From positions 1 to 52,030 of the IMG/VR virus record IMGVR_UViG_3300018063_000006: 52,030 bases of DNA. One strand, given 5' to 3'. A program made the position numbers and the translations under genes. Below, one piece after another: positions 1 to 52,030 of the stretch. This DNA comes from a virus. The notes below the pieces were generated by a model that did not search any database, was not told the DNA's origin, and saw only the letters and a list, made by a program, of their open reading frames with translations. Numbering within the stretch: the first letter of the stretch is position 1; each line of letters begins with the position of its first letter.

Positions 1-123
1 ACCTCCGCAAACTGCGAGGAGCGAGGCGCTGTAGCACTCCGCAAGAAGGCCCGAAAATTTGCTGCGCGCGTATACGAGGAGGTTCCCTGGCTTCTCACGA
101 GCTGCCTGGGGTCTGGCCCCGGG
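1..123. repeat. Direct terminal repeat, left copy
   Basis: Bases 1-123 match 51908-52030 base for base (compared by eye). Confidence 0.95.
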
Positions 124-352: not shown

Positions 353-378
353 AGTACGGGCAGTACGGCGAAGTACGG
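353..378 (+). repeat. Three tandem iterons AGTACGG (353-359, 362-368, 372-378)
   Basis: Exact 7-mers spaced 9-10 bp apart in non-coding DNA. Extended consensus g(C/A)AGTACGG. Confidence 0.8.
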
Positions 379-451
379 CGAGGTGCTACCTTGATAGCAT
401 AGCCTAAGGCTGCGACTTCGTTGACTGAAATGCGCCCAGGCACATGCGCAG

Positions 452-758
452 CCGTACTGCCGTACTTCAAGTCGTACTACTTGGCTCCCGTGTGAGGCAG
501 CCAGGGCGCGCAGCCGGAGCGGAGCGCCCGGCGCCGAGCCGGGTTTACCCCCTTAGGGGCCCGTACTCCCGTACTTCGCAATTCGCCAATGACGACGCAG
601 GCTTAAGCCGGGCCTTAGCATGTGCCAGTATGGGCACCCCCCGTACTGCATGTGCTGTGTCGCATTGCGCGATTCGCTTGGGTTGGCGCGAGCTTGCGCG
701 CGCTATGAGCTGTGCCATGGGCCTACCAAGGTAGCAGATTCCGTACTACCTCCGTACT
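452..758 (-). repeat. Iterons in opposite orientation (CCGTACT)
   Basis: Copies at 452, 460, 561, 569, 641, 741 and 752, plus variant TCGTACT at 472. A plus-orientation variant AGTATGG lies at 627. Copies mostly occur in pairs 8-11 bp apart. Confidence 0.8.
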
Positions 759-920
759 GCAAGCGCCATGTTTCTGGCACTCACTGTGCGCAACGCTAAG
801 GGACTTGACACGAGTGGCGTAGAAGTGCCAGAAGCGTGCAGCGATGACACGCCGCGACCACTGGCGACCATTGACTGTAAGGGACGAAGCGTGGCGAGCA
901 GTTTGCAACGGGAGGGACGC

Positions 921-1115
921 ATGAGGACACGAGCACTGCGGTACACTTCGTACGCGACGTTCCGAGCCATCAAGCAGGCGGCACTCGCGGCGGTCGCTGC
1001 GCTGGTCGATGGTCTCCAGGCAGGCGCCGGACGCTGTGCCTGCGGCGAAGTCCTGCGTTACGGGACCCTAGGGACCAGCAATGCGTGGTGGCACTGCATC
1101 CGTTGTCATGAGTAA
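921..1115 (+). CDS. Small Cys/His protein, zinc-ribbon-like (64 aa)
   Basis: ATG 921 sits behind GGGAGGGA. In-frame inner part of ORF 768..1115. Contains CAC..HCIRCH. Confidence 0.6.
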   Translation: MRTRALRYTSYATFRAIKQAALAAVAALVDGLQAGAGRCACGEVLRYGTLGTSNAWWHCIRCHE

Positions 1116-1155
1116 CGCGCCGCGAGGCGCCACAACCGGAGGGAGGACGAGAGTC

Positions 1156-1464
1156 ATGAGCACGACGATCGCAGTAGCAACCGAAGTAGGGAAACGCGAG
1201 ACGGCCTGCTTCGGCATGCGCGACGGACTCGCAGTAACGACACCGCTTCCATACGACCGGAAGCGCTGCGGCCGTTACGTCATCACGCACATGGCGAGCG
1301 GGTTGAAGTTTGGCGGCTTCGCCTCGCGGCCGGCGGCATTGAAGGCGCTTGCTGCGGTCGCCACGTTGGCCGACTGGACGCAGACGCGGGAGGCGCTCAA
1401 CCTTGCGTCGCTTGTCGAGCCGGTGCGGGCGGCAATCGAAGCGGCCGGCGGAAGGTGGGTGTAG
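1156..1464 (+). CDS. Hypothetical protein (102 aa)
   Basis: ATG 1156 sits behind GGAGGGAGGA. In frame with ORF 1081..1464. Confidence 0.6.
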   Translation: MSTTIAVATEVGKRETACFGMRDGLAVTTPLPYDRKRCGRYVITHMASGLKFGGFASRPAALKALAAVATLADWTQTREALNLASLVEPVRAAIEAAGGRWV

Positions 1465-1468
1465 TCCC

Positions 1469-1675
1469 ATGAGCACGACAGCAGAGACCCTGGACCGCGA
1501 AGCCTATCGCAACGGCGCTGCCTTCGCGCAGGCGTACGCGAGGAGCTATGGACTCGACGCGGCGCGACGGGCGATGTTCAAGCTTGCGGGGCGCGAGACG
1601 GCGGACTACTTGCGAGGCATGCGGGCGAGCGTGCGGGGGATGGAGACGGCGAAGCAGGGGAGGGCGGCGGCATGA
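1469..1675 (+). CDS. Hypothetical protein (68 aa)
   Basis: ATG 1469 sits behind GGAAGGTGGG. In frame with ORF 1349..1675. Confidence 0.55.
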   Translation: MSTTAETLDREAYRNGAAFAQAYARSYGLDAARRAMFKLAGRETADYLRGMRASVRGMETAKQGRAAA

Positions 1676-5563: not shown

Positions 5564-6176
5564 GTAGTCGCGGGGCCGCGCGGCCTGGCAGCGGAGGCGG
5601 AATCGCGTGTAGGTCGTCGGCTTCGCTGCGAACAGTCAGCATCGAGAGCGGCTCGCCGTTATCGTCGATCAACCCGAGCGCCGCACTGCACTCCTGATAG
5701 ATCATCGCGCGCAGCCCGGCTGCGCCGTAGCGTCGCGACTCGGCCGCGAACAGCAGCCGCGACAGCGCCGCGCGTAGGCGCTCGATCTCTTTTAGCCCCT
5801 CGAGCATGGTGGCGAGCACCGGATCAGGGGCGGACGCAGGGTCAGCACTAGGCTTATCGGTTGCTGAGCGAGAGTCCGATAGGGCGCCGCGCTTCGCTGC
5901 GAAGTTGACATAACGTACCGACGAGGACTTGCGTTCCATGTCGGCACTTCGCATAGAAAGTTGAGCCAACGTATCGACACGCGCAGATGATGTGTGGTTT
6001 GCTTGGTCAGCTGCCAACGTCTGATAAGGTACGAGTAGTGAACTTTCAGTGGCACTTGGCACGTTATTTGCTCGGGGCGAAGAGATGGCGAAGCGGCGCG
6101 ATGCGAAGGCGTACACCTTTGCGCGCTGCGTCGTTTTGGGCGGCACAGTTTCGTCGATGATCGGCATGAGGCCCAT
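5478..6176 (-). CDS. Hypothetical protein, partner of the RHH gene (232 aa; alternative start at 6278)
   Basis: Only long ORF in this interval. Has a low-GC Ser/Thr/Ala linker between two domains. No recognisable motif. Confidence 0.45.
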   Translation of the reverse strand: MGLMPIIDETVPPKTTQRAKVYAFASRRFAISSPRANNVPSATESSLLVPYQTLAADQANHTSSARVDTLAQLSMRSADMERKSSSVRYVNFAAKRGALSDSRSATDKPSADPASAPDPVLATMLEGLKEIERLRAALSRLLFAAESRRYGAAGLRAMIYQECSAALGLIDDNGEPLSMLTVRSEADDLHAIPPPLPGRAAPRLLTGPVAPALPLSGTSPKAPAARTSTRRS

Positions 6177-6240: not shown

Positions 6241-6558
6241 TCAGGATCGTGACCGAGTGCCAGTCTGGCGCCGCTCATGGGGCGCCGGCGGCTCGGTAGG
6301 AATCGTTGGCACTCCGTGCGGCTCGAGCGCTGCCCGATGCTCGAGCGCCTCGAGGCCGACGCGGAGGGCGATGCGGGCGGCCTGGGGCAGGCTGTAGGGC
6401 TCGCCGCTGTGCGCGGCGCTCAGCGTCTCAGCGACCCGGCGCACGCGCTCAGCGAGGTCGGGCTCAAGGAAGATGTTGAGGCGGGACCAGCGGGGACGAG
6501 ACGGGCGGTTGATGCGATCCGGCGTACCGTGCTGCTGCCGAGGCTTGCTGCGCGTCAT
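6241..6558 (-). CDS. Ribbon-helix-helix (CopG/Arc-like) DNA-binding protein (105 aa)
   Basis: ATG 6558 sits behind AGGAGG at 7-nt spacing. RLNIFLEPDLAERVRRVAE...LPQAARIALRVGLEALE fits a strand-helix-helix pattern. Confidence 0.7.
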   Translation of the reverse strand: MTRSKPRQQHGTPDRINRPSRPRWSRLNIFLEPDLAERVRRVAETLSAAHSGEPYSLPQAARIALRVGLEALEHRAALEPHGVPTIPTEPPAPHERRQTGTRSRS

Positions 6559-7441: not shown

Positions 7442-7824
7442 TGTTCCTTCCGGTTGACACCATCGACGGCGCCGCGCCGCCGCTTTCGGCACTTGCGGGC
7501 GCGCGCACGCTGAGCGAAGCCGAGCGCAGGCTGATGGCCGATGTGCTGATGCAAGCAGTTCAGGAGGCTAGGGCGAGTGCGGGCAGTGCGGCAACAGTAG
7601 CGCATCAGCTACGGCAGGCGGATCGTGACGCCGCTCGCGCGTGGCTGCGGGCGCAGCCGGGCTTCACGGCGCGGGAGTGCTGCGAGGCGCTGGGTGTCGA
7701 GTACGAGGCGATGATGGCAAAGCTGGAAGCTGAGTGGCGCCAGACGAAGCCGAAGCCGGGGCCGAAGGTGAAGGAACGCGCAGCGTCGCGCGGAACGCGG
7801 ACGCGGCTAGTGGTGGTGAAGTGA
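7441..7824 (+). CDS. Hypothetical protein (127 aa)
   Basis: TGATG overlap. In frame with ORF 7393..7824. Confidence 0.55.
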   Translation: MFLPVDTIDGAAPPLSALAGARTLSEAERRLMADVLMQAVQEARASAGSAATVAHQLRQADRDAARAWLRAQPGFTARECCEALGVEYEAMMAKLEAEWRQTKPKPGPKVKERAASRGTRTRLVVVK

Positions 7825-7925
7825 TGGAGTGCGCGATGCCCTACGAACTGATGCTGATAGAGGGGGCGCAGCTTCTCACCTTGCTGGTCCTCGTCGTGTG
7901 GACCTTTTTCAGGGGCCAGCGATGA
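7824..7925 (+). CDS. Small membrane protein (33 aa)
   Basis: TGATG overlap. Hydrophobic LLTLLVLVVWTFF. Confidence 0.35.
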   Translation: MECAMPYELMLIEGAQLLTLLVLVVWTFFRGQR

Positions 7926-8230
7926 GCGCACCGAAGCGCAAGGCAGCACCGCTCCCGCGCCTCACTGAAGCGCAAGCGTGGCGCGTGATCGCAATAATGT
8001 TCAAACGCCCAAATGGCGTGTGTTACGCGATCCATAGCTTGGCAGAATCCGGCGTCATCAGCGAGGTGATGTGCGATACCCTAAACGCTCGAGTTGATGC
8101 GGAGTTCAAGCGGCTAGAGAAGTCGCCGAATAGCCCGTTCCTGTGGCCGCTTATTATGGCATCCTCAGACTCACAGCGGATGGCGTTCGCGGCCAAGCAG
8201 GCGCAGCGCGCGGCAAGGCGGCTCAAGTGA
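7922..8230 (+). CDS. Hypothetical protein (102 aa)
   Basis: ATGA overlap. In frame with ORF 7829..8230. Confidence 0.55.
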   Translation: MSAPKRKAAPLPRLTEAQAWRVIAIMFKRPNGVCYAIHSLAESGVISEVMCDTLNARVDAEFKRLEKSPNSPFLWPLIMASSDSQRMAFAAKQAQRAARRLK

Positions 8231-9201
8231 ACGCTCCCGCGATCGTCAACGTGAGTCCCAGCGTCCTTGCTGACGTGCTCACTTGCGAGACGAAAGCCTG
8301 GTCGCGGCACATCAAGGGTTATACGTCGAAGGGCGACGCGATCAAGGCGGTAGCAGGGCAGGGGTTTCACGCCGCCATCGCTGAGCACTTCCGGCCCGAT
8401 CGCGCGTTCAGTCAGAGCTTCGCCAACACGATGAAGGCGTTTCACGACGTCTACGACTCCGCTTTCGCTCGCCTCCCCGCCGACGCGCTCCCCGATCAGG
8501 CGTACTTGCCCGCTAACCTTCATCGCGTACTGGCGCGCTGGATCGAGATGCATCCGTCGAGCGCGTTGCCGTGGCGCAAAGTGCTCACAGTTGAAGAAGC
8601 CTTCACTTCGCGGACTTTCACAGTGGGTGACACGACGGTCAAGCTAATCGTTCGCCCCGACCTCGTCATCGAGGACTTCAACGGCGCCATTCGCTTCGTC
8701 GACACGAAAACAACGGGTTGGCGTATTAGCGACTCGGGCTGGCGGCGCGCGCTTCGCTTGAGCCTTCAGGTCGCGCTCTACACCGACGCGGTCGCGCAGC
8801 GCTACCCGGGGCGAAGCGTGTGCGGCGGCTGGATCAACGCGATTGAGATGCGGACGCTGCCGAGCGACCCAACGCGGAAGTGCGCAACGCACAAGCTGAC
8901 GTACGCCGAGTGCGGCAACGAGCACGTCAAGTACGAGTTCATCGAGTGCATGACGACGCCGGAGCGGCTGGCGCAGGCGTTGACCGACGCTGAAAGCGCG
9001 GCCGAGCGCTTCGTGCGGATGCTGCGGCTCAATGAGCATGAGCTGAACGGCGCAATGCCGTGGCTCAACATGAACGGCGGTGCGAACGGTGCTTGTCGCT
9101 TTTGCGCTGCGGGCAATTGGTGCGAAGCCGGGCGCGTGCCCGAGGCGCTTGGCAGCTTCATGCAGTACGAACCGTGGGTCGTCGAGGAGGGAACGCGATG
9201 A
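8227..9201 (+). CDS. PD-(D/E)XK (Cas4/RecB-like) exonuclease with C-terminal Cys cluster
   Basis: GTGA overlap. Motifs RPDLVIED...FVDTKT, QVALYTD and C..CRFCAAGNWC. Confidence 0.7.
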   Translation: MNAPAIVNVSPSVLADVLTCETKAWSRHIKGYTSKGDAIKAVAGQGFHAAIAEHFRPDRAFSQSFANTMKAFHDVYDSAFARLPADALPDQAYLPANLHRVLARWIEMHPSSALPWRKVLTVEEAFTSRTFTVGDTTVKLIVRPDLVIEDFNGAIRFVDTKTTGWRISDSGWRRALRLSLQVALYTDAVAQRYPGRSVCGGWINAIEMRTLPSDPTRKCATHKLTYAECGNEHVKYEFIECMTTPERLAQALTDAESAAERFVRMLRLNEHELNGAMPWLNMNGGANGACRFCAAGNWCEAGRVPEALGSFMQYEPWVVEEGTR

Positions 9202-15783: not shown

Positions 15784-16649
15784 TCCTCTTGTCGTGCGAC
15801 TTGTCGCAGATCGAGTCCCGCGTCGAACTGATGCTCGCTGCCGCGACACCTGAGTTCGAGGGCACCGACGTTGCCAAGGAGTGCGTACGCCTCGCGACCG
15901 CGCATCCCAGCGAGTTCGACATCCACACCTGGACCGCTGCGGTCGTGCTCGGCAAGAGCGAAGCCGACATCAGCGACATCGCGCCCGAAGGCGGCAGCGA
16001 GCCAAGCGATCGGCAGATCGGCAAGACAACCGGCCACGGCTTCATGCGCGGCATGGGCGCGCAGACGATGGCCGACGGGCTGCTGAAGATGGGATACGTC
16101 GTTACGCCGGAGACGTGCGCGCGGCGCCTCGGTCGACTTGCGGCGAAGCTGCCGGCGATCCCCGATGGCTACTTCCTCGACATCCGTCGGCAAGTCATGC
16201 GTTACCGCGGGCTGGCGACGACATGGGGCGCCATCTGGCGCTGCGACTATCGGCGACTCGAGGAGCATCTGTACGCAGTCGGGTATAGCTATCAGCCGCA
16301 GCGCGAGACGATTGACCTCATCAACCAAGAGGGCTTCTTGCCGCTTCGCAATGCGATTCACCTGCGTCGGCTCAACCCCGTCGAAGGTCGTCCCGCGCCG
16401 CGCATCCACATCCACGGCCACGACTCGCTGCTCATCAGCGTCCATCCTGATGATGCCTGGACCGTCGCTAACTTCATCGACCGCACGCTCGGCTGTTGCG
16501 AGCGGCGGTACGCTGCGGGGACGCTGCGGGTGCCGGTGACGTACGCGCTCGGAGAGACGTGGAAGGCCCGACACGAGCTGAATCGCCTTCCTGATAAGCG
16601 CGCGTTCCGCGACATGGCGTGGGACTGTGCAGCACACGCTACGAAGTAG
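15780..16649 (+). CDS. polA: Family-A DNA polymerase, C-terminal fragment (palm motifs A, B and C)
   Basis: Starts at GTG 15780. Motif A ILLSCDLSQIESRV, motif B RQIGKTTGHGFMRGMG, motif C HGHDSLL. Confidence 0.85.
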   Translation: MILLSCDLSQIESRVELMLAAATPEFEGTDVAKECVRLATAHPSEFDIHTWTAAVVLGKSEADISDIAPEGGSEPSDRQIGKTTGHGFMRGMGAQTMADGLLKMGYVVTPETCARRLGRLAAKLPAIPDGYFLDIRRQVMRYRGLATTWGAIWRCDYRRLEEHLYAVGYSYQPQRETIDLINQEGFLPLRNAIHLRRLNPVEGRPAPRIHIHGHDSLLISVHPDDAWTVANFIDRTLGCCERRYAAGTLRVPVTYALGETWKARHELNRLPDKRAFRDMAWDCAAHATK

Positions 16650-16687
16650 AAGGACTCTATGTGTGGATTTACGCCGAGGACACCGCG

Positions 16688-17677
16688 ATGAAGAAGCCGC
16701 CTGAGTGGTTGGTTGACGGGCTACTGACTGTCAGCAGCGTCAGTGCGCTCGTCAGCGCGCCCAACGTCGGCAAGACGTTCATCGCGCTCGATCTCGGCTT
16801 CAGCATCGCCGCCGGCGTTGACTGGCACGGCTACGGCGTTCGCCGCGGCGGCGTCGCCTACATCGCGAGCGAAGGCTACGGCGGGCTGACAAACCGCGTG
16901 CGCGCGTGGCGCGTGGACCGCGACATACCCCCGGGCGCTGACGTCGGGTTGTGGTTCTGGGACCGTGACATTCAGCTCGCCAACCGCGTACGGCGCGAGC
17001 AGTTTCGCGCTGACCTGCATGAGCTGAAGACGAAGATGGGCACGATGCCGATTCTAACCGTCATCGACACCCTCAACGGCTGCTTCATCGGTCAGGACGA
17101 GAACGCCGCCGGCTCGATGGGCGAGTTCCTGAGCGGGGTGAAGCTGGTTCAAGACGTCACCGGCGGCGCCGTGTTGATCCTGCACCACAGCGGATGGCGC
17201 AAGCGCGACGACAAGGGCCGGGTTGAAGACGAGCGCGAGCGCGGCAGCACGGCGCTGCGAGGCGCGGTCGACCTGATGATGCTGCTGCAACGCGGCCTTC
17301 GGCCTGGCGAGCTGGCGATCAAGTGTACGAAGAACCGCGAGGGCGAGCTGTGGGAGCCGCTTGCGCTTCAGCTTCGACAGGTCGAGATCGCCGATGGCAT
17401 CAGCTCGTGCGTCGTCGATGACGGCTCGTATGATGCCGAGACGGCGAGCCTGCCACCGCGGTGGCTGACCGCGATCCGCCGACTCGGGAAGTTCGGCGCC
17501 GAGGGCGCGACGTTCTCGCAGTGGCTCAACGCGAGCGGGCTGTCGCGAGACACGTTCGGCAATCGCATGCTGAAGCAGGCGATACAACGTGACCTCGTGG
17601 CGAAAGAAGGCGAGCGGTACGTGCTCAAAGTGCGTGAGGCGAATCCAACAGAATCACCTCAAAGGGAGGATGCGTAA
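16688..17677 (+). CDS. RepA/AAA_25-like RecA-fold replicative helicase with C-terminal wHTH-like domain (alternative GTG start at 16661)
   Basis: Walker A SAPNVGKT and Walker B ILTVIDTL. RGSTALRGAVD resembles the arginine-finger region. Confidence 0.7.
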   Translation: MKKPPEWLVDGLLTVSSVSALVSAPNVGKTFIALDLGFSIAAGVDWHGYGVRRGGVAYIASEGYGGLTNRVRAWRVDRDIPPGADVGLWFWDRDIQLANRVRREQFRADLHELKTKMGTMPILTVIDTLNGCFIGQDENAAGSMGEFLSGVKLVQDVTGGAVLILHHSGWRKRDDKGRVEDERERGSTALRGAVDLMMLLQRGLRPGELAIKCTKNREGELWEPLALQLRQVEIADGISSCVVDDGSYDAETASLPPRWLTAIRRLGKFGAEGATFSQWLNASGLSRDTFGNRMLKQAIQRDLVAKEGERYVLKVREANPTESPQREDA

Positions 17678-50424: not shown

Positions 50425-50611
50425 CGCTAAACTCGTCCGCGCATACCCAAAGTGGCCCAATGTGCAGAGCCCATAGCAAGCCGTCGTAGTAGTCGAAGCC
50501 CACGTAGAGATACGTCTTCTCGGGCCACGTATGCCGTGTATTCCAGCCCCACGACCAACGCGCCCAGCGGAGCAACCACCACACACGCTGATGAAAGTTG
50601 TACTCAGGCAT
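50408..50611 (-). CDS. Trp-rich mini-protein (67 aa)
   Basis: 8-nt overlap with the terS stop. The 3' end overlaps the terL ATG. Moderate GC3. Confidence 0.4.
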   Translation of the reverse strand: MPEYNFHQRVWWLLRWARWSWGWNTRHTWPEKTYLYVGFDYYDGLLWALHIGPLWVCADEFSDVHPA

Positions 50612-51149
50612 CAGCTTCTTCGATCTCGTCCACCGGCGCAGCCAGCAGCTTCCGCATCCGCTCCACCTGCATCGGCGTTACGTCGATCGCGCGCGTCGTC
50701 TCGATCGACACCGCGACCTTCTTCGGGACCTGGCGATCGAGGAGCGTCTTCGCCGCGTCGGTGCGAACGCGCAGCAGCTTCGCATCGACCTTATCGAAGG
50801 TCCCTTCGCGCACCTTTCGCAACCATCGAATGTTGCGCTCGGCATCACTCATCAGCAGCTCGTTGATATCGCCGGGGCGCGGCAGCAGCCCACGGATGTC
50901 GCTCACCAGCTCGACTACGTCCGGGTCCTGGCGCATGCGATCGACGTCGTCGAGTGCAAGGCCGAAGGCCGCGGCGAGCTGCGCCGGCGCGAAGCGGTTG
51001 AACGCCAGCAGAATCGTCAGCATCTCGCGGTTCAGCGACTCAGGATCGGTCGGCAGGCCACGACGAAGGTCGGGTCGCGTAGCGCGCGAAGCCGTCTCGA
51101 TGACGTCGCGCGGCTTCGTCTTCGGCTGCCTGATCCACTCGCGACTCAT
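50604..51149 (-). CDS. terS: Terminase small subunit candidate (181 aa)
   Basis: Lies immediately upstream of terL. HTH-like LAAAFGLALDDVDRM. Confidence 0.45.
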   Translation of the reverse strand: MSREWIRQPKTKPRDVIETASRATRPDLRRGLPTDPESLNREMLTILLAFNRFAPAQLAAAFGLALDDVDRMRQDPDVVELVSDIRGLLPRPGDINELLMSDAERNIRWLRKVREGTFDKVDAKLLRVRTDAAKTLLDRQVPKKVAVSIETTRAIDVTPMQVERMRKLLAAPVDEIEEADA

Positions 51150-51841
51150 GGCCCCACCATTGCCATCGCCTGCGCCGCGCTCGCCACAGGACAGGCTTCG
51201 TTCAGCGCGTCTTTCGGTGCATGCTGCACCGCCAGCTCGCAGAGATCGCGTCGCACGTCATCCGCGCTCAGCTCGAGCACGGCGCACACGCTCTCGAACG
51301 TCCCGAGCGGCTCGGCTTCGCGCGACAACGTCCATTCGACCGCCTCGCGCCAGAGCGCCAGCGTCGAACACCCAGCCTCGAGCTGACAGCCCTCCCAGCG
51401 CGTGTCGACTCGCGACTGCGGATGCCGACCGCGCAGCGCGCTGATCGCGTCAGTCAGCACGGCGGCCCACAGGCGCTTCGCTGCTTCGATACTCTGCACA
51501 GCACGCGCCAGCTCCACCTGCCACCGCGGCCGCGTCGCCAGCACTTCAAACCGCCGCGCCGTCTCGCCGCGCCCGCTGGGAGACTGTCGCCGTCCACAAG
51601 CAGTGAATCGCATCAGGAGTTTACCGCGGAGTGCCGACCCACACCTGACGGCACACAGAAGCCCTGGTGGAGCCGGCGCTTCATCGCCGCGTTCCCGTCC
51701 GGACGGGTCCACCGATACCCATAACTGCGTCTCGCTGTACGCGACGACACGCGAAGCGTCAAGCCGCGTCGCTACTGCCCGCCGCAGCCCGCCGCATGTA
51801 GGCGATCGGCCACTTCCCGGAATGTCGGCGATCGGCGACAT
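51146..51841 (-). CDS. First late-arm protein, hypothetical (start uncertain, up to 231 aa)
   Basis: High GC3 along the whole ORF. No SD at 51841. Alternative ATG at 51613. Confidence 0.45.
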   Translation of the reverse strand: MSPIADIPGSGRSPTCGGLRRAVATRLDASRVVAYSETQLWVSVDPSGRERGDEAPAPPGLLCAVRCGSALRGKLLMRFTACGRRQSPSGRGETARRFEVLATRPRWQVELARAVQSIEAAKRLWAAVLTDAISALRGRHPQSRVDTRWEGCQLEAGCSTLALWREAVEWTLSREAEPLGTFESVCAVLELSADDVRRDLCELAVQHAPKDALNEACPVASAAQAMAMVGP

Positions 51842-51907
51842 CGGGGCGGGCCGCGTTGCGGCACTGCGCCGGCCCTGCTGCGGGTATTCACTGCTGTGTG
51901 GTATGAA

Positions 51908-52030
51908 ACCTCCGCAAACTGCGAGGAGCGAGGCGCTGTAGCACTCCGCAAGAAGGCCCGAAAATTTGCTGCGCGCGTATACGAGGAGGTTCCCTGGCTT
52001 CTCACGAGCTGCCTGGGGTCTGGCCCCGGG
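51908..52030. repeat. Direct terminal repeat, right copy
   Basis: Identical to 1-123. Implies a 51,907-bp genome unit. Confidence 0.95.

Follow-up and report, generated by a model that had tools for sequence, protein, structure and literature searches.

A clustered heptamer array at the early/late junction of an uncultivated phage genome: a candidate iteron-type origin for a self-loading RepA-type helicase

The DNA analysed here (52,030 bp over its full length, hereafter the window) is a complete viral genome that was recovered as a circular assembly in IMG/VR, with 51,907 bp of unique sequence and a G+C content of 63-64%. Bases 1-123 are identical to bases 51908-52030, and a related complete genome, G001, carries a 127-bp repeat. 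We take 123 to be the largest k-mer setting in one MEGAHIT configuration of the JGI pipelines, and 127 is presumably the top k of metaSPAdes; since the repeat lengths match these assembler k-mer sizes, both repeats are taken as assembly overlaps and not as proven physical terminal repeats. The genes are arranged in two divergent arms. Early and replication genes, including those of a split family-A polymerase and of a helicase, occupy the plus strand from about 921 to about 19.9 kb, and the minus strand carries the genes between 51616 and about 20 kb, beginning with those for a 156-aa protein, a 181-aa TerS-like protein (50604-51149, minus strand) and, in the same operon, the TerL ATPase. The identity of this terminase to that of any deposited phage is at most 34%, and positions 1-1200 had no DNA match among deposited phages.

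The two arms are separated by a non-coding junction of about 1.2 kb that spans the assembly overlap. Its left-hand part (51617-51907) lies upstream of the first late-arm gene (51146-51616, minus strand) and continues into the right-hand part (1-920). Scans of the junction returned zero Rfam families, tRNAs, sigma-70 consensus promoters or terminators. Positions 52-123 hold a block, GAAAATTTGC.GCGCG...GAGG...CCTGGGGGCT.ACCCC, that is invariant and was found in every relative. Further to the right, an AT-rich patch, CTGATAAT-N4-GATTATGTCAAC (245-268), is a candidate easily melted element: a ranking of all 30-bp windows of the genome by nearest-neighbour energies places it in the fourth least stable. 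Its GATTATGTCAAC part is also present in the relatives L095 and L098, and a scan of IMG/VR for the conserved AT-rich block gave zero matches. The minimum of the cumulative GC skew lies at the junction, a signal that is confounded by gene orientation.

The feature under study, an array of short repeats at 353-758, stands about 85 bp to the right of this patch and ends 165 bp upstream of the first early gene. The array region contains no ORF with the GC3 signature typical for the genome and is non-coding. An earlier note, made from the letters of the window, had described it as about twelve copies of AGTACGG or its complement CCGTACT in about 400 bp of non-coding DNA between divergent arms; on recheck this description was confirmed, and all of the coordinates given there for the copies and their variants were correct. 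Ten exact and two one-mismatch copies make up twelve sites, which fall into five clusters of 3+3+2+2+2 (spacings within clusters are start to start, in bp). Cluster 1 (353-378, plus strand) consists of three exact AGTACGG copies at 353, 362 and 372, with spacings of 9 and 10. Cluster 2 (452-478, minus strand) has CCGTACT at 452 and 460 and the variant TCGTACT at 472, with spacings of 8 and 12. The third cluster (minus strand) follows a palindrome, CCCCCTTAGGGG at 548-559, and comprises CCGTACT at 561 and 569 with a spacing of 8, palindrome and sites together covering 548-575. In cluster 4 (627-647) a variant AGTATGG on the plus strand at 627 and a CCGTACT on the minus strand at 641 are placed head-to-head, 14 bp apart, and cluster 5 (741-758, minus strand) has two CCGTACT copies at 741 and 752, 11 bp apart. 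The cluster starts are separated by 99, 109, 66 and 114 bp, and the orientations read +++ / --- / -- / +- / -- from left to right. Clusters 1 and 2 therefore, by their orientations (+++ and ---), face each other over a 73-bp spacer, whose stability is below average and only mildly reduced; the strongest AT-rich patch (245-268) is outside the array and not central to it. A conserved -35-like TTGACA at 805-810, about 46 bp past the last cluster, is free of any heptamer site.

The enrichment of this word was assessed against shuffled controls, a check proposed in the earlier note, and the array proved to be the strongest local 7-mer enrichment in the window. Exact AGTACGG copies number 16 in the whole window, against 2.74 +/- 1.56 (maximum 8) in dinucleotide-preserving shuffles. 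The figure of about six chance occurrences that had been proposed earlier is right for uniform composition, whereas the shuffles bring it down to about 2.7. Ten of the 16 exact copies lie within 406 bp, a stretch for which the rate in the rest of the window (6 copies in 51.5 kb) predicts 0.047, and the Poisson P(>=10) for 353-758 is 1.5e-20. The next best local 7-mers are common GC-rich words that reach at most 6 copies per 500 bp. No second pair of exact AGTACGG sites was found elsewhere in the genome, and other genes have no copy of the motif in front of them.

Relatives whose sequence spans the junction were found via exact-protein look-ups in public assemblies, since most of those anchored on TerL in IMG/VR and in metagenomes were too distant, or their sequence stopped short of the junction. 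Loci in IMG/VR with a triple AGTACGG (68 loci) or a triple GTCTCAC (81 loci) were also considered as relatives and rejected, none being related by protein content; such triples are simply common in IMG/VR. The most informative relative for the array is L095, the only one with a strong array. Its proteins are 32-70% identical to their homologues in the window, the majority 48-70%, and the synteny is the same. Read in the window's orientation, the L095 junction carries at the same place 12 GGTCTCAC sites in a 3+3+2+2+2 arrangement, and all 11 exact GGTCTCA copies of this 11.5-kb locus fall in the array. Cluster 1 of L095 is a GGTCTCA(C) triple on the plus strand (1781, a variant, then 1788 and 1800), and cluster 2 has three plus-strand GGTCTCAC sites (1867, 1875 and 1886). 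Two minus-strand GGTCTCAC sites form cluster 3 (2001, and a variant at 2008), an inverted pair AGTCTCAC / GTGAGACC with its members 16 bp apart forms cluster 4 (a variant at 2066, plus strand, and 2082, minus strand), and two GGTCTCAC copies on the plus strand, 11 bp apart, form cluster 5 (2145 and 2156).

The number of clusters and the number of copies in each agree between the window and L095, and the spacings within clusters are near-identical. In cluster 2, both have a 7-1-7-4/5-7 spacing after a shared GCGCAG, in opposite orientation, and cluster 4 is in both a head-to-head pair whose left member has one mismatch. The region of cluster 3 aligns position for position with '..TAAGGGGGGTGAGACCTGAGACC' of L095; base for base, ..TTAGGGGC-CCGTACT-C-CCGTACT-TCG in the window stands opposite ..TAAGGGGG-GTGAGACC-TGAGACC-TCG in L095. 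The orientation is flipped in clusters 2 and 5, and the clusters that face each other are 2 and 3 in L095 against 1 and 2 in the window. Homology of the spacers is significant between clusters 2 and 3 and from cluster 5 to the first early gene (z = 3.4 and 4.3), and it was not significant for the other three spacers of this pair. The conservation of the scaffold thus appears, at the level of sequence, to be only partial, and we do not claim it for the whole.

The remaining relatives have other words at the same junction. L097, which shares the GTCTCAC core with L095, ends in a triple AGTCTCAC at the place of cluster 1; L098 has the repeats GGGAAGG, GTCGGAC and GCGGATT; L184 and L285 have weak arrays of GGCASTG / GTGCCA-type repeats; and G001 has AAAAAGT repeats next to a 60-nt AT tract. 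In these genomes the junction appears always to carry short repeats, the sequence of which is lineage-specific. That different words occupy the same junction suggests that the sites co-evolve with a phage-specific reader. The conservation of motif and spacing, which the earlier note had named as a check, came out divided: the spacing is conserved in L095 with its 12 sites, and the word is not, GGTCTCAC standing in its place. The proposal that the repeats are sites for a multimeric, sequence-specific DNA-binding protein holds well with an array that keeps a 12-site geometry and changes its word, and the array is, on this comparison, a real and conserved element that is predicted to bind protein.

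Among the candidate readers, the helicase of the early arm (16619-17677, plus strand, 352 aa) stands out. Its core matches Pfam AAA_25 (9e-31), and RSF1010 RepA (PDB 1g8y) is its sole PDB match by sequence and its top match by fold, followed in the fold search by DnaB, T7 gp4 and RadA. The protein thus belongs to an AAA_25 RecA-fold, SF4-like type and not to the SF3 or MCM (AAA+) class. In an AF2 model with a pLDDT of 84, residues 280-336 (nt about 17456-17626) fold as H-H-H-beta-beta, a C-terminal winged helix with the putative recognition helix LSRDTFGNRMLKQ. The pattern of the winged helix is kept in 17 homologues, in which the recognition helix is variable, and one homologue has a Pfam HTH_IclR match. 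The helicase was also considered as a fast-evolving initiator, an idea that we rejected: it is no outlier, with 43% identity to its L184 homologue against 37-72% for the neighbouring proteins.

The wider family of this helicase was examined through an alignment of homologues that led to 80 IMG/VR viral loci, which were dereplicated at 60% helicase identity into 12 clusters; in each locus, over a length of up to 20 kb, the densest canonical 7-mer array was sought. Its start is in most loci about 200-370 nt past the matched ATPase part, which places it right at the end of the gene. Eight of the 12 clusters have 7-13 copies of one 7-mer in 400 bp, located from -60 to +600 nt of the helicase stop codon, where shuffled loci reach at most 4-6 copies. 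In seven of these eight, no array anywhere in the locus is denser than this one, which starts at most about 60 nt from the stop codon; under chance alone, fewer than 1% of loci would have their top array in a given 120-nt interval of 20 kb. An independently found locus, L121, encodes a 703-aa primase-helicase followed by about 14 copies of GTGAGACA.

The recognition helix co-varies with the heptamer word among the family loci, a comparison drawn from loci other than the GGTCTCAC phages. GTACCGA goes with the helix GLN[AS]RRFKEC (29 loci, 23 distinct C-termini), AACCGAA with GIKSNRFREV (17 loci) and GTACGAA with IPRYRFVEA (1 locus). Four lineages, with C-terminal domains that by eye show little conservation otherwise, combine TGTCCCG with [ED]AKKKAFQR, and the words AAGTGGG and AAGTGCG go with TKHFSRW (5 loci) and RKGFKRW (3 loci), respectively. 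In addition, the iteron of L251, itself a locus of this family, (A/C)GTACGAAAC, resembles AGTACGG of the window and its variant AGTACGA. Taken together, the adjacent arrays and the co-variation of helix and heptamer make a strong case, from sequence, for heptamer arrays as the targets read by this helicase family. Many of the helicase-adjacent arrays also hold a GC-stem palindrome with a TTTA or TATA centre and inverted iterons on its flanks; the counterpart in the window is CCCCCTTAGGGG, which abuts cluster 3.

The helicase had been listed in the earlier note, with the ribbon-helix-helix (RHH) protein and TerS, as one of three possible binders, and it is the one that gains support, through its predicted RepA-type core and winged helix and through the family-wide link to heptamer arrays. 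The window itself has no iterons immediately 3' of the helicase, the next gene starting at the helicase stop codon, and its sole array is 16 kb away from the helicase gene. Among the standalone helicases of about 320 aa that are nearest to that of the window, L188-L193 are mostly without an adjacent array. In the same standalone-helicase set, six TGGAACTA copies lie at the 3' end of the helicase gene in G004 and six AGTGATAG copies lie 6 kb off in G005, and three further standalone helicases like the window's showed no clear array. L184 and L285 have similar recognition helices (..TFFRMKK and ..VFFRMKK) and GGCACTGCC-type repeats in common, a likeness that is consistent with the helicase as reader, the arrays of both being weak.

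We therefore favour, with a confidence slightly better than even, the interpretation of the array as an iteron-type replication origin for the phage's own self-loading helicase, unlinked here from the helicase gene. The twelve iterons in their five clusters would be bound by the C-terminal winged helices of a hexameric RepA-type helicase, and the iteron-bound helicase would load itself onto the DNA, probably where two clusters point towards one another close to easily melted DNA; the split family-A polymerase would take over after loading. We infer in particular that the helicase of the window is the reader of the window's array, at 16 kb from its gene, and that helicase binding would lead to melting of the origin. 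Lineage-specific sites on a conserved scaffold are typical of initiator/iteron pairs and support an origin, and the AT-rich patch at 85 bp from the array together with the facing clusters 1 and 2 might be further supporting features. On the other side, the association observed in the family concerns arrays adjacent to the gene, whereas that of the window is 16 kb away. The mostly missing adjacent arrays of L188-L193, the weakness of the arrays in L184 and L285, the position of the AT-rich patch away from the array centre and the flipped orientation of clusters 2 and 5 in L095 also appear to speak against an origin.

The earlier note had listed four functions for the array, of which the replication origin is the one that we favour; a master operator is possible, a pac/terminase site is disfavoured and a partition-like site found no support. 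As an operator, which we consider unlikely, the array would hold the sites of a phage transcription regulator, perhaps early-encoded, that switches the divergent promoters by coating or looping the DNA. Its position, with a transcription unit leading away on either side and the first early gene 165 bp downstream, would suit such a role, yet no site overlaps the conserved -35-like TTGACA and no motif copy precedes any other gene. The first three to five early genes are the sole part of the early arm without homologues between the window and L095, so that a linked regulator of changed specificity could be encoded there. These first early proteins belong to no recognisable DNA-binding family, however, and unrelated small proteins would hardly be expected to retain an identical 12-site geometry with words of the same 7-8-bp length. 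The only clear small regulator is the RHH protein (6241-6558), whose beta-strand reads SRLNIFLEP in the window and GRLNLFLEP in L095. Its DNA-facing residues R, N and F are the same in both phages despite their different heptamers; the same DNA would therefore be expected to be bound in both, which argues against this protein as the reader of the variable word. The 156-aa protein has an HTH-like C-terminus (EPLGTFESVC.VL.L....VRRDL) that is nearly invariant across relatives. Since initiator iterons often double as operators, an operator function would in any case be compatible with an origin. The RHH protein also bears on a partition or centromere-like site, at which a ParB-, RHH- or omega-type protein would act to keep a plasmid prophage, a reading that we consider very improbable. 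The RHH protein omega of pSM19035 reportedly binds heptad repeats in both orientations, the type of target seen here, the phage does encode an RHH protein, and the relative L285 carries an integrase, so that parts of the clade may be temperate. Against this stand the conserved beta-strand of the RHH protein in phages with different heptamers, the lack of a ParA or ParB in the set of 20 proteins scanned from the early and late arms, and the lack of an integrase or plasmid-maintenance gene among the window proteins scanned.

A packaging role seems to us a little less likely again than an operator. The repeats would then be small-terminase sites (pac or cosB-like), or equivalents of the CCTAAAG heptamers that T7 has by its terminal repeat. 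The junction lies just upstream of the operon with the TerS-like gene (50604-51149) and TerL, and the terminal repeat of T7, which is 160 bp long, is followed directly by about 14 CCTAAAG-type heptamers at 175-361. These were counted directly on record V01146; they lie on one strand at a strict 13-bp period, whereas the array of the window is clustered and has two orientations. The circular assemblies of the window and G001 are cut within the junction and the L096 contig ends at window position ~124, which could hint at physical ends nearby, but the 123- and 127-bp repeats equal assembler k-mer sizes. Contig ends were accordingly rejected as a proxy for physical termini, being inconsistent: L099 reads through the hairpin at which L096 stops. 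The TerS-like protein is modelled as an HTH-like bundle followed by two long helices, and its fold search gave nothing significant, the best matches (E ~1) being a phage protein (2ao9) and the P74-26 small terminase; we call it TerS-like on the basis of its position and its modelled helix architecture only. Its third helix, putatively the one for recognition, is acidic (window, LALDDVDRMR; L095, ESIEYVELMR; L097, ATEDEIQEMR) and differs between L095 and L097 despite their common GTCTCAC core; it does not track the heptamer, and TerS is thus disfavoured as the binder. The terminase proteins are moreover well conserved in the clade, which the heptamers are not, and the block at 52-123, conserved in all relatives, would more plausibly serve as a terminase site.

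Iteron origins of self-loading helicases are a known kind of element. The variant features here are the RepA-type core, the heptamer words, the unlinked position at the early/late junction and the fixed 3+3+2+2+2 geometry with a swapped word. In the literature searched, we found no description of a heptamer-array self-loading design in RepA-type helicases with a winged helix. More broadly, we propose tentatively, and with rather less than even confidence, that a class of self-loading initiators, widespread in phages, consists of RepA-type (RecA-fold, AAA_25) helicases bearing a C-terminal winged helix and has heptamer-array origins whose word is set by a short recognition helix, and that in the clade of the window the origin has shifted to the early/late junction from a place at the end of the helicase gene and has then been retargeted (AGTACGG versus GGTCTCAC) at a fixed 3+3+2+2+2 geometry. 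If the origin interpretation is true, it locates a replication origin for an uncultivated clade of phages from soil and sediment that is without close relatives in culture, and the self-loading helicase design, which has been studied in the SF3/MCM-type Reps of SaPIs, would extend to RepA-type RecA-fold helicases. The family-wide pairing of recognition helix and heptamer provides a ready data set for a protein-DNA recognition code. The window and L095, with their matched architecture and different words, form a pair for swap experiments and, if the origin is real, a natural specificity-swap pair that might help to derive the recognition code as well as the geometry in which two hexamers assemble. 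Such origin arrays might also serve as landmarks in the annotation of metagenomic phages and might help to predict the replicon incompatibility of co-infecting relatives.

The proposed element can be compared with several known systems. The iteron number and layout of SaPIs are well described: in the Reps of Staphylococcus aureus SaPIs (Rep1, PriRep5), a C-terminal winged helix binds 6-12 short iterons, which adjoin the rep gene, flank AT-rich DNA and point in opposite directions, and the Rep/iteron specificity differs between related elements (PMC9371898). As in the SaPI Rep/ori system, the replicative helicase proposed here would be its own initiator by means of a C-terminal winged helix and short iterons, whose two sides may likewise be oppositely oriented, and 8 of 12 other lineages in the window's helicase family also have the array directly after the helicase ORF. 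In contrast to SaPI Rep, the ATPase of the window has an RSF1010-RepA-type RecA fold (AAA_25, SF4-like) and is neither SF3 nor MCM; the iterons are 7-8 bp long against 5-6 bp in SaPIs, and the array of the window is 16 kb from the helicase, its five separated clusters together span 400 bp, and it lacks a clear AT-rich centre.

Distance from the gene is a feature of phage P4. Its alpha protein is a fusion of an SF3 helicase and a primase, with a C-terminal DNA-binding domain that reads octamer iterons at ori and crr; these iterons form several clusters in both orientations, some of them kilobases from each other and from the gene. The window resembles alpha/ori/crr in having a helicase with a C-terminal DNA-binding domain as the proposed reader, clustered iterons of two orientations and a distance between array and gene. 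Unlike alpha, its helicase is standalone and of RepA type, and no second distant, crr-like cluster was found in the window. The closest solved relative of the helicase core is RSF1010 RepA (1g8y, 1nlf). In the oriV of RSF1010 (IncQ), three 20-bp iterons are read by RepC, RepA being without a DNA-reading domain. Iterons together with GC-rich and AT-rich elements are common to oriV and the window, whereas the helicase of the window itself has the winged helix and its repeats are heptamers.

The arrangement also recalls T7, in which a dozen or so 7-bp words likewise occupy non-coding DNA at the genome junction of a podovirus-like genome with a family-A polymerase, although the copies of the window lie in five clusters on both strands and those of T7 in one orientation at a regular 13-bp period. 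Finally, in the lambdoid phages the DNA-binding domain of O and the iterons change together between related phages; the iterons of lambda, of about 18-19 bp, are part of the O gene itself, and it is through P that O brings in the host DnaB. A joint change of initiator specificity and iterons is likewise what we propose for the window and its relatives, with the difference that the proposed reader is here the helicase itself.

In the junction between the divergent early and late arms, window 52-123 holds a block of about 70 nt, CGAAAATTTGC.GCGCG..TA..GAGG...(C)CTGGGGGCT.ACCCC, with a GC hairpin at its end. All relatives examined (L095, L096, L097, L098, L099, L184 and L285) share this block at the nucleotide level, and it is more strongly conserved than the flanking proteins. 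It might serve as a promoter, encode a structured RNA or be a pac/cos site for the terminase.

Some assembly ends also fall in this junction. Positions 1-123 of the window are identical to 51908-52030, giving 123-bp "direct terminal repeats", and the related complete genome G001 has a 127-bp counterpart; both lengths match common assembler k-mer sizes, and the repeats should therefore not be taken for true virion terminal repeats. The overlap of the window stops at 123, immediately past the conserved hairpin, and an independent Logan contig (L096) has its end, position 1, at the equivalent base. G001 is likewise cut within its own junction, and L099 continues through the equivalent of 123/124. 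The breaks at 123/124 could be due to chance or to reduced coverage at the hairpin, or they could hint at a physical end.

Directly upstream of the first early gene, several relatives share (C/T)GTGGCG-type words, in 2-5 copies, together with a conserved CTTGAC(A/G) (window 759-920; L095 9054-9310; L098 8221-8470; L285 2660-2836). They make up a conserved control element, separate from the variable heptamers, for which the RHH protein (6241-6558), with DNA-facing residues that are conserved too, would be a natural candidate reader.

A hypervariable early module adjoins the array: the three to five genes that open the early arm (window 921-1675; L095 7697-9053) have no detectable homologue between the window and L095, although the remaining arms are syntenic, with homologues mostly 48-70% identical. 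On the late side, a small gene for a Cys4 zinc ribbon is present in relatives (L095 10459-10686; L097 980-1183), where it separates the TerS-like gene from the homologue of the 156-aa gene, which opens the late arm. It is absent from that position in the window, but the first early gene of the window (921-1115) encodes a 64-aa CxC...CxxC protein. In one relative, L285, the early arm includes a gene (7586-8479) for a Phage_integrase-family protein, suggesting that parts of the clade may be temperate; no integrase was found among the window proteins scanned.

Many unrelated viral contigs of IMG/VR (L188-L267, L121, L129) have a heptamer or octamer array directly 3' of a RepA-type (AAA_25) helicase or primase-helicase gene. 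Locus L243 has a separate, very dense array (5685-6036) upstream of its helicase gene, at a distance of 4-5 kb, with 24 CGCAAAC copies within 350 bp; this locus also has nine ATGTTCG copies downstream of that gene. The arrays that follow the helicase genes frequently have a palindrome at their centre, built around TTTA or TATA, with inverted iterons on either side. The helicase gene with its adjoining array is a general and readily recognised origin-like module.
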